From NCBI RefSeq assembly GCF_003018235.1, contig NZ_CP027437.1: DNA of 64,000 nt, one strand, 5' to 3'. Within the stretch, counting starts at the first letter, position 1. Every line of letters starts with the position of its first letter. Positions 32,566 through 34,710 of the stretch are shown piece after piece. The DNA comes from Escherichia coli (lineage in GTDB: Bacteria; Pseudomonadota; Gammaproteobacteria; Enterobacterales; Enterobacteriaceae). The notes under the pieces are model-generated. The model searched no databases. It was not told where the DNA came from and worked only from the letters and a program-made list of their open reading frames with translations. Position numbers and translations under genes: made by a program.

Positions 32566-33576
32566 ATGAAGGCTGCAGTTGTTACGAAGGATCATCATGT
32601 TGACGTTACGGATAAAACACTGCGCTCACTGAAACATGGCGAAGCCCTGCTGAAAATGGAGTGTTGTGGTGTATGTCATACCGATCTTCATGTTAAGAAT
32701 GGCGATTTTGGTGACAAAACCGGCGTAATTCTGGGCCATGAAGGCATCGGTGTGGTGGCAGAAGTTGGCCCAGGTGTCACCTCATTAAAACCAGGCGATC
32801 GTGCCAGCGTGGCGTGGTTTTACGAAGGATGCGGTCATTGCGAATACTGTAACAGTGGTAACGAAACGCTCTGCCGTTCAGTTAAAAATGCCGGATACAG
32901 CGTTGATGGCGGGATGGCGGAAGAGTGCATCGTGGTGGCGGATTACGCGGTAAAAGTGCCAGATGGCCTGGACTCGGCGGCGGCCAGCAGCATTACCTGT
33001 GCAGGGGTCACCACCTACAAAGCCGTTAAGCTGTCAAAAATTCGTCCAGGGCAGTGGATTGCTATCTACGGTCTTGGCGGTCTGGGTAACCTCGCCCTGC
33101 AATACGCGAAGAATGTCTTTAACGCGAAAGTGATCGCCATTGATGTCAATGATGAGCAGTTAAAACTGGCAACCGAAATGGGCGCTGATTTAGCGATTAA
33201 CTCACGCACTGAAGACGCCGCCAAAATTGTGCAGGAAAAAACCGGTGGCGCTCACGCCGCGGTGGTGACAGCGGTAGCTAAAGCTGCGTTTAACTCGGCG
33301 GTTGATGCTGTACGAGCAGGCGGTCGTGTTGTGGCTGTCGGTCTGCCGCCGGAGTCTATGAGCCTGGACATCCCACGCCTTGTGCTGGATGGTATTGAAG
33401 TGGTCGGTTCGCTGGTCGGCACGCGCCAGGATCTCACCGAAGCCTTCCAGTTTGCCGCCGAAGGCAAAGTGGTACCGAAGGTCGCCCTGCGTCCGTTAGC
33501 GGACATCAACACCATCTTTACTGAGATGGAAGAAGGCAAAATCCGTGGCCGTATGGTGATTGATTTCCGCCGCTAA
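32566..33576 (+). CDS. adhP: Zinc-dependent alcohol dehydrogenase, propanol-preferring
   Basis: Start at ATG 32566 with AGGAGG RBS; GHEGIGVV and CGHCEYC zinc-ADH motifs. Confidence 0.93.
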
Positions 33577-33721
33577 GAGGCCTTTGCTGCGACTGCCATG
33601 TTCGGGTCGCAGCATCGCACACTCTCCAACATGAAATGGCTAAATGGATTATTGTTGCGTAGGAAGGAACAATAATGATAGTGTTCCTGGTGAAGGAACG
33701 CTACTGAGAGTAAAGACACTA

Positions 33722-34006
33722 ATGAAAATGGCCAATCATCCCCGCCCGGGGGACATTATTCAGGAATCACTGGACGAACTTAATGTCAGCCTGCGCGAGT
33801 TTGCCAGAGCAATGGAAATTGCGCCCTCAACGGCAAGCCGATTGCTGACCGGAAAAGCAGCTTTGACACCAGAAATGGCGATTAAACTTTCCGTGGTGAT
33901 CGGCAGTTCGCCGCAAATGTGGCTGAATCTGCAAAACGCCTGGAGTCTGGCAGAGGCAGAAAAAACGGTGGATGTGTCGCGATTACGCCGTCTGGTTACG
34001 CAATAA
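33722..34006 (+). CDS. yddM: HigA/VapI-family HTH protein YddM (putative solitary antitoxin, 94 aa)
   Basis: HTH segment ([22 protein letters not shown]); start chosen at ATG 33722 (MKMANHP...); the upstream in-frame extension from 33644 looks non-coding. Confidence 0.8.
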
Positions 34007-34036
34007 AAAAATGGCGCTTCTTAAAGCGCCATTTTC
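34004..34036. terminator. Bidirectional rho-independent terminator between convergent yddM and fdnI
   Basis: aaaaaaatggcgctt-ctta-aagcgccatttt hairpin flanked by A/T runs on both sides. Confidence 0.65.
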
Positions 34037-34056
34037 AGCTTAAAGTTCAAAAGAGA

Positions 34057-34710
34057 TTATATCCCTTCTTCACTCTCTTTTTTCGCTTCTGCCTTCTCGA
34101 TTTCACGATACCAGCGCGGATGGTGTTTCTTCGCCCAGCGACGGCTCACCTTTCCTTCGATCATCCCTTTAATCGATCCTTTCACCCAGAATGCCATATA
34201 CATATGGATCAGGATGGCGTGGATCAGGATGATACCCGCAGCCGCGTGGATCAGCAGGCTATAACGGACAACCTGTATCGGGAAGTACTGCGCAAAGTAC
34301 GGACGCCAGATAATCACCCCGGTCACCAGCAGCACGAAAATCATGCTCATGATCGACCAGAACATCATCTTTTGCCCGGCGTTGTACTTACCAACATCCG
34401 CCACTTTGTGCTCATTGCCTTTTAATACTTCGACAATGTTCAACAGCCACGGAATATCTTTCTTATCCGGGATGTTGTGATGCACAAAACGCACAAACAT
34501 AAACATCAGCGCGACGAAAATCGCAATGCCGAAGAACGGGTGCAAAATGCGCCCCATCTGCGGCGTACCGAAGGTTTGCGTCAGCCATTGCAGCGTCGGG
34601 AAGAAGAACGAAATCCCGGACAGCGCCACCAGGAAGAAGCAAATCACCACGGTCCAGTGACAGGCGCGATCAATAAATTTGGTGCGCACAATCATTTTCG
34701 ACTTACTCAT
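34057..34710 (-). CDS. fdnI: Formate dehydrogenase-N gamma subunit (cytochrome b556)
   Basis: 217-aa product from the internal start ([15 protein letters not shown]...); 4 TM helices; 8-nt overlap with fdnH. Confidence 0.92.

Follow-up and report, generated by a model that had tools for sequence, protein, structure and literature searches.

An orphan antitoxin gene between adhP and fdnI

The window analysed here is a 64-kb stretch of Escherichia coli DNA, in which the gene run around yddM is maeA-adhP-yddM-fdnIHG. The features that make up the locus are listed below, with + and - giving the strand.

32566..33576 (+): adhP, alcohol dehydrogenase, the upstream neighbour, given for context (open reading frame and RefSeq annotation of identical or near-identical loci)
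33577..33721: adhP-yddM gap of 145 bp, starting after the end of adhP at 33576 and holding short ORFs only
33586..33613 (+): hairpin 3' of adhP (GCTGCGAC...GTCGCAGC), fold of -17.1 kcal/mol, z -2.29
33631..33675 (+): 14-codon ORF, the 3' part of a 25-codon ORF that starts at 33598
33722..34006 (+): yddM (higA), encoding an intact 94-aa HigA-family antitoxin with an XRE-type helix-turn-helix (TIGR02607, Pfam HTH_3, identity with PDB 2ICP/2ICT)
34008..34035 (both strands): predicted bidirectional hairpin terminator common to yddM and the convergent fdnI (folding)
34057..34710 (-): fdnI, formate dehydrogenase-N gamma subunit, the convergent downstream neighbour, given for context

The product of yddM matches Pfam HTH_3 with E = 7.6e-10 and, over profile positions 1-80 of 81, the NCBIfam equivalog TIGR02607 (antidote_HigA, 'HigA family addiction module antitoxin'), on which it scores 93.7 bits where the cutoff is 47.7. 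It is 100% identical over all 94 aa to the 'antitoxin HigA' of PDB entries 2ICP and 2ICT, which have been named YddM/HigA of E. coli CFT073 (PMC3968373; PMC6987408), and the next-closest solved structures are those of Rts1 (Proteus vulgaris) HigA, P. putida GraA, E. coli YbaQ and Coxiella VapI. With a match above a curated cutoff and an XRE/Cro-type helix-turn-helix fold, YddM is, as judged by profile, a true HigA antitoxin. The initial annotation, which had recognised HigA-type features in the 94-aa protein, was therefore correct on this point, and the profile search that it proposed returned HigA and not a helix-turn-helix regulator unrelated to toxin-antitoxin systems.

A HigB gene of the RelE/ParE fold does not precede yddM in the window, whereas one does so at the orthologous loci of 1,329 E. 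coli genomes and of more than 25 other species. The gap had been thought too small to hold a toxin gene, and indeed higB needs 279 bp where 145 bp are available; moreover, tblastn at a permissive E-value with the E. coli B2-type and Rts1 HigB proteins found no HigB-like sequence in 33577..33721 or elsewhere in the 64-kb window (best E = 0.34), and no upstream toxin ORF was recoverable even when frameshifts were allowed for. The search and the size of the gap together refute the idea that a complete pair is still present with its toxin unannotated or frameshifted, either in the gap or elsewhere in the window, and we give it a negligible probability; a HigB homolog at another place in the genome would leave the state of the yddM locus as it is. 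Since it has no toxin gene, the window does not hold a complete type II module, with toxin and antitoxin in one operon. What it does hold is an intact antitoxin ORF without an adjacent toxin, for which cross-genus synteny indicates a complete ancestral pair (see below), as is expected of an orphan antitoxin.

Two other reading frames were considered. The 14-codon ORF upstream of yddM had been reported before and does exist, but it lies at 33631..33675 and not at 33634..33678, a difference of three bases. It overlaps the predicted -35 element and operator O1 described below and, because the toxin-bearing alleles have no counterpart of it, is unlikely to be a gene. In the frame of yddM the longest ORF is 33644..34006 (120 aa), but its start lies 5' of the putative promoter and it has no support from homologs. 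The AUG of yddM is preceded, at a distance of 6 nt, by an ACA triplet (33714-33716). In a table of the MazF regulon yddM is listed with a value of 6 (PMC5001579), which we take to be the distance from ACA to AUG; if so, MazF could cut the yddM mRNA at this site to leave a leaderless transcript.

Downstream of yddM, both the convergent terminator and fdnI were found where the initial annotation had placed them. The hairpin at 34008..34035 has folding energies of -16.2 (+ strand) and -17.6 kcal/mol (- strand), with z of about -4.3, and none of 200 shuffles equalled it; an A-run and a T-run flank its two sides. An Rfam search of 33400..34200 gave only sub-threshold matches, all on this hairpin, the best being to STnc320 (28.8 bits against a gathering score of 50). 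The spacer between yddM and fdnI is variable in E. coli: the window (34007-34056) has no copy of a REP-containing unit of ~179 bp that is present once in an O157-like locus (L004, 2207-2433) and twice in a K-12-like locus (L003, 2207-2612), each unit ending in a copy of the terminator hairpin, and in some strains (H2, H3, L050) an IS200 element is found instead of the REP unit.

The hairpin that follows adhP differs between alleles in what comes after it. In the window (33586-33620) it has no U-tract and ATCGCAC comes next, whereas in toxin-bearing alleles the hairpin is followed by TGTTTTG, with CTGTTTTG at the position of the window's ATCGCAC. Given this difference, read-through from adhP into yddM may not be the same in the window and the toxin-bearing alleles.

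The complete higB-higA pair is widespread at the orthologous site

The distribution of the toxin was scored in 5,426 complete E. coli genomes. A query of 1 kb that spans the adhP-yddM locus matched all but a few of them (5,413/5,426), and a subset carries a gene annotated 'RelE/ParE family toxin' between adhP and yddM. The toxin gene is present in ~1,329 of the 5,426 genomes, while ~4,080, about three quarters, have the toxinless leader sequence seen in the window. In 545 of the 1,329 toxin-bearing genomes a 1-bp deletion puts higB out of frame (at ~2058 of L001 when compared with L002), which in ST131 is annotated as a frameshift; an intact toxin is therefore left in only ~14% of complete E. 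coli genomes.

Where the gene is intact, as in L002 and in NRG857c, the toxin ORF encodes 92 aa and overlaps in ATGA the start of an identical YddM (WP_000781370.1), the accession in toxin-bearing L002 being the same as that in K-12-like strains. The 92-aa E. coli HigB (WP_000605676.1) scores 64.4 bits against the Pfam HigB-like_toxin profile. Its best solved relative is Rts1 HigB (4MCT_B, E = 8e-32), to which it aligns end to end, keeping the residues that align with the catalytic His54 and the C-terminal Asp-Tyr-His. The complete E. coli pair thus shares with Rts1 (Proteus vulgaris) HigB-HigA a toxin-first operon, the ATGA overlap, a 92-aa HigB with these residues and a HigA with an N-terminal helix-turn-helix. 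The two systems differ in that the antitoxins have limited identity (E = 1e-18 over 81 aa) and in that the E. coli locus is chromosomal and not on a plasmid, and toxinless in the window.

The pair itself has been described in adherent-invasive E. coli NRG857c as TA20 (ParE-2/HigA-2), with K-12 and HS having the antitoxin alone at that position (Bustamante and Vidal, 2020; PMC7232551). We checked the published TA20 coordinates and found them to be those of the adhP-toxin-yddM-fdnI site. The HigB(ParE-2)-HigA-2 pair of NRG857c and CFT073 (TA20; PDB 2ICP/2ICT) therefore occupies the same chromosomal site as yddM of the window, with an identical antitoxin and a homologous core of O1, promoter and O2; what the window lacks by comparison is the 279-bp toxin gene and ~50 bp of upstream spacer. 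With the HigA-family name in RefSeq, a solved structure and a published orphan state in K-12 and HS, orphan yddM is already known in substance.

For a view of its ancestry, one genome per species was scanned with YddM and then with HigB, AdhP, FdnI and MaeA by tblastn. A HigB ORF of 92 aa ends 2 nt before the yddM homolog in E. albertii, two Escherichia sp. and about 13 Citrobacter species, and likewise in Cedecea, Buttiauxella, Pluralibacter, Enterobacter sp., Chimaeribacter, Erwinia rhapontici and more distant bacteria; fdnI lies downstream of the pair in Escherichia, Citrobacter, Pluralibacter and Enterobacter sp. That the pair recurs at the same site across genera, with fdnI downstream, points to the complete higB-higA pair beside fdnI as the ancestral state and to the window allele as derived from it through loss of the toxin. 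The synteny comparison proposed with the initial annotation has thus shown that about a quarter of E. coli genomes have a 92-aa HigB gene directly before an identical yddM, as related genera do before its homologs. It clearly favours the orphan-antitoxin reading of that annotation, with the orphan state arising by toxin loss.

Decay of higB with retention of higA has also occurred independently elsewhere. An internal deletion in Citrobacter sp. FP75 (L009, 2891-3001) spares residues 1-22 of HigB and its final 12 residues, the gene of C. portucalensis is frameshifted, and only fragments are left in Xenorhabdus (L015; L029 and L030 are among the loci). A different kind of allele is seen in E. 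coli O157:H7 TR01 (L005, 1102-1246), where the 145-bp gap is a mosaic of toxin-type upstream sequence, a window-type O1 and the last 47 bases of higB. Because the mosaic has an unchanged length and occurs in a single assembly, this suggests a polishing artefact and not a real intermediate.

Relative to the toxin-bearing allele, the window is missing the 279-bp higB and ~50 bp of the spacer upstream of it. Unique breakpoints were not found by global alignment of toxinless with toxin-type alleles, which gave many equally good placements, and two readings remain: a junction at the CAC codons of His7 and His92, or retention of ~25 nt of the 3' end of higB. As far as the alignments allow, the gap can still hold no more than a few codons of either higB end.

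A conserved putative promoter with two predicted operators precedes yddM

To look at the gap from which higB is missing, the 110 nt upstream of higB from 25 loci were aligned with the gap of the window as a phylogenetic footprint. This brought out a block, GTTGCG .. GGAACA-N10-TGTTCC-N7-GGAAC, that is conserved across genera, the composite pattern being found in 27 loci. Within the window GTTCC-N7-GGAAC occurs once, as does GGAACA-N10-TGTTCC, at 33666..33687, against 0.01 occurrences of the latter expected by chance. The following elements are predicted from the footprint.

33651..33673: operator O1, ATTGTTGC-N7-GGAACAAT, an imperfect inverted repeat over the -35 element (25-locus footprint)
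33655..33660 (+): -35 element, TTGCGT, separated by 18 nt from the -10 element (GTTGCG block, kept in Escherichia, Citrobacter and other genera)
33676..33684 (+): extended -10 element, TGaTAGTGT (aligned promoters)
33679..33703: operator O2, TAGTGTTCC-N7-GGAACGCTA, with 8 of 9 arm positions complementary, overlapping both the -10 element and the transcription start predicted near 33690-33692
33706..33710 (+): GAGAG, 11 nt ahead of the ATG, a possible weak Shine-Dalgarno sequence read from the letters alone

A strict regular expression, TGnTAnnnT, matches 17 of the 25 orthologous promoters where they align with the -10 element of the window, and three more have TGCTATACT or TGCTATGAT at an offset of 1-2 bases. 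The putative -35 element matches 3 of 6 consensus positions, and a simple scan of 33450..34150 for sigma-70 promoter and terminator consensus sequences called neither. A site for the sigma-70 holoenzyme has been mapped by SELEX to the adhP/yddM boundary (Shimada et al., 2014; PMC3946193). Between the window and a toxin-type allele the half-sites and the -10 element are identical at 32 of 33 positions, as against 6 of 14 in the operator spacers, and the sequence flanking this operator-promoter core is heavily remodelled.

The arrangement resembles that of the hig promoter of IncT plasmids of the Rts1 type, in which two inverted repeats lie over TTGCAC, analogous to the -35 element of the window, and TATAGT. 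In both promoters two inverted repeats cover the -35 and -10 elements with their centres ~30 bp apart (29 bp in the window, 30 bp in the plasmid). The half-sites themselves differ, being GTTCC-N7-GGAAC in the window and ACAC-N3-GTGT in the plasmid. Rts1 HigA alone represses Phig ~211-fold, acting on operators O1 and O2 that lie over its -35 and -10 elements (PMC12266136). Because the layout is the same, we infer by analogy that YddM would repress its own promoter through O1 and O2.

The operators are not invariant within E. coli. In the toxinless alleles compared, the right arm of O2 forms a longer inverted repeat than in toxin-bearing alleles such as TA20: the arm in the window (33695-33703) is GGAACGCTA, matching 8 of 9 positions, where toxin-bearing alleles have GGAACAAGG, matching 6 of 9, and in two further loci (L049 and L051) it is GGAACACTA, which makes a perfect 9-bp inverted repeat with TAGTGTTCC. 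This progression from 6/9 to 8/9 and 9/9 points to a palindrome that was lengthened after loss of the toxin, apparently overwriting the former ribosome-binding site of higB.

Two other natural variants disrupt the predicted promoter. In L049-type alleles (775-797) the 23-bp quasi-palindrome of O1, ATTGTTGCGTAGGAAGGAACAAT, is exactly reverse-complemented to ATTGTTCCTTCCTACGCAACAAT relative to window 33651-33673, which abolishes the putative -35 TTGCGT while yddM is kept. About 1,060 E. coli records fall into the corresponding 80-90% identity band, and all five that were sampled are 87.6% identical; the change looks like a template-switch micro-inversion inside the operator. In E. coli WP8-S17-ESBL-08 (L050, 790-800, corresponding to window 33671-33699) yddM is again intact, and the -10 element has been lost together with the left half of O2 in a deletion of 29 bp between two GGAAC direct repeats. 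This deletion is present in at least one strain, and variants of intermediate coverage like it number at most ~180 genomes, an upper bound obtained by subtraction. Since these alleles disrupt the promoter without loss of the gene, expression from the predicted yddM promoter may not be strongly selected.

The antitoxin is retained under purifying selection

Promoter-disrupting alleles of this kind raise the question of whether yddM is a neutral relic, functionless but not yet decayed, as would also fit with its weak Shine-Dalgarno sequence and with the small mutational target that a small gene presents. The coding sequence argues otherwise. As well as the locus being so nearly universal in the census, yddM is annotated in every sampled row that covers it, and all sampled Escherichia alleles encode an intact protein. 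Seven toxinless alleles vary synonymously at 8 codons and non-synonymously at 2 (binomial P = 3e-4 for a departure from neutrality); the comparison is limited to these seven, and part of the variation could have come in by recombination from lineages that bear the toxin. Both non-synonymous changes lie in the C-terminal tail of the O157 type. The yddM genes of the window and E. albertii differ by 11 synonymous and no non-synonymous changes, and dN/dS between E. coli and Citrobacter is 0.04-0.08. Judging from these substitution patterns the antitoxin appears to have stayed under purifying selection, and with the operator half-sites conserved while their spacers drift, we regard a functionless relic as improbable.

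Some antitoxins also regulate other genes, P. aeruginosa HigA being an example, and chromosomal anti-addiction modules exist. Both are possible functional analogies for a retained YddM, for which the initial annotation had suggested a role as regulator or in anti-addiction protection, although the classical anti-addiction examples are complete toxin-antitoxin pairs and YddM is an orphan antitoxin. The first analogy would make YddM a domesticated transcription factor, kept after toxin loss to regulate other chromosomal genes such as those of the stress response, with self-repression incidental. In K-12, Myc-tagged YddM gave ChIP-exo peaks and was among ten candidates confirmed as DNA-binding and one of six that yielded a MEME motif (Gao et al., 2018; PMC6237786), which lends the regulator idea indirect support. 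Genetic interactions of yddM are common to stress regulators (PMC9283627), and the yddM deletion strain of the Keio collection is hypersusceptible to epetraborole, a phenotype reported without complementation (PMC12457515). Strong purifying selection and the presence of YddM in nearly all E. coli are likewise in keeping with a wider role. However, 59% of all peaks in the ChIP-exo study lie outside putative regulatory regions (PMC6237786), the target genes are candidates of which none has been validated, and the phenotypes come from high-throughput screens. Moreover, YddM is identical in toxin-bearing and toxinless strains, so the protein bears no mark of a new role. Regulation of other genes by YddM is possible, but that it was domesticated for this purpose seems to us rather unlikely.

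A similar case in E. coli K-12 is YbaQ, which is also a solitary helix-turn-helix protein of the HigA family (PDB 2EBY, E = 6e-9 against YddM). Its toxin partner ParE-1 survives in NRG857c and is absent from K-12 and HS (PMC7232551), and it too is a DNA-binding protein confirmed by ChIP-exo (PMC6237786). YbaQ differs from YddM in that it is encoded at another locus, has 113 aa and is a distant paralog. Repression by antitoxins is documented (PMC6987408).

The second analogy would have the orphan kept for immunity, neutralising HigB that arrives by plasmid or recombination and thereby preventing post-segregational killing. YddM is 100% identical to the partner of HigB in ~25% of E. coli and in E. 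albertii, so that neutralisation of that toxin would be expected, and Rts1-type higBA modules are common on enterobacterial plasmids, with 386 plasmid records matched. Against this, the HigA homologs on plasmids are at most ~53% identical to YddM and typically ~40%, a distance at which cross-neutralisation is not generally expected; the only exceptions to these identities are six plasmid records carrying YddM at a minimum of 99% identity, and the one inspected proved to be a mobilised chromosomal segment. The cognate module has a chromosomal location with no visible mobile element around it, and the HigBA pair of K-12, YgjN/YgjM, is too distant to appear among the PDB matches. Because the plasmid-borne homologs are so distant, classical anti-addiction against plasmid hig modules was rated unlikely, and retention for immunity at large is in our judgement quite unlikely. 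On the 219-kb conjugative plasmid pECTOK-001_1 (L048, NZ_AP018396.1), an ISEcp1 transposase gene lies just upstream of a chromosomal adhP-yddM-fdnIHG segment.

A probable toxin-deleted module with its own predicted operators

The explanation that we favour, with a probability of roughly 0.85, is that yddM is the higA gene of a toxin-deleted higBA module, kept behind its own operators and most likely encoding a self-repressing helix-turn-helix dimer that could still neutralise the cognate HigB. The ancestor of Escherichia and Citrobacter would have had a chromosomal, toxin-first higB-higA module of the Rts1 type between adhP and fdnI, from which the lineage of the window would have lost higB and the adjoining spacer, so that the antitoxin gene would now lie ~20 nt behind the promoter and two operators of the module. 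A YddM dimer is predicted to bind O1 and O2 and to repress its own promoter in the manner of toxin-free Rts1 HigA, which would keep YddM at a low, self-limited level. Should the toxin gene re-enter the cell, YddM would be expected to neutralise the cognate HigB, since strains that carry the toxin (L002, NRG857c, E. albertii) have exactly this antitoxin.

A more ambitious version holds that selection actively maintains both the orphan HigA and the ancestral two-operator promoter in toxinless E. coli, either as standing immunity against a return of the cognate higB, still in circulation in E. albertii, Citrobacter and about a quarter of E. coli, or as a domesticated low-level regulator, with the O1-inversion and O2-extension alleles tuning its expression. 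We put this forward as speculative and think it doubtful.

In itself the orphan state of yddM matters little beyond annotation. What is added here is that the complete pair appears to be ancestral across Escherichia, Citrobacter and other genera, that the toxin has repeatedly been lost or broken (by deletion in most E. coli, by a 1-bp frameshift, and by independent decay in Citrobacter and Xenorhabdus), and that the antitoxin and its operator core have been conserved throughout this decay. The adhP-yddM locus is thus a clean and well-sampled natural example of toxin-first decay, and a convenient system for testing immunity against regulation as the reason why an orphan antitoxin is kept.
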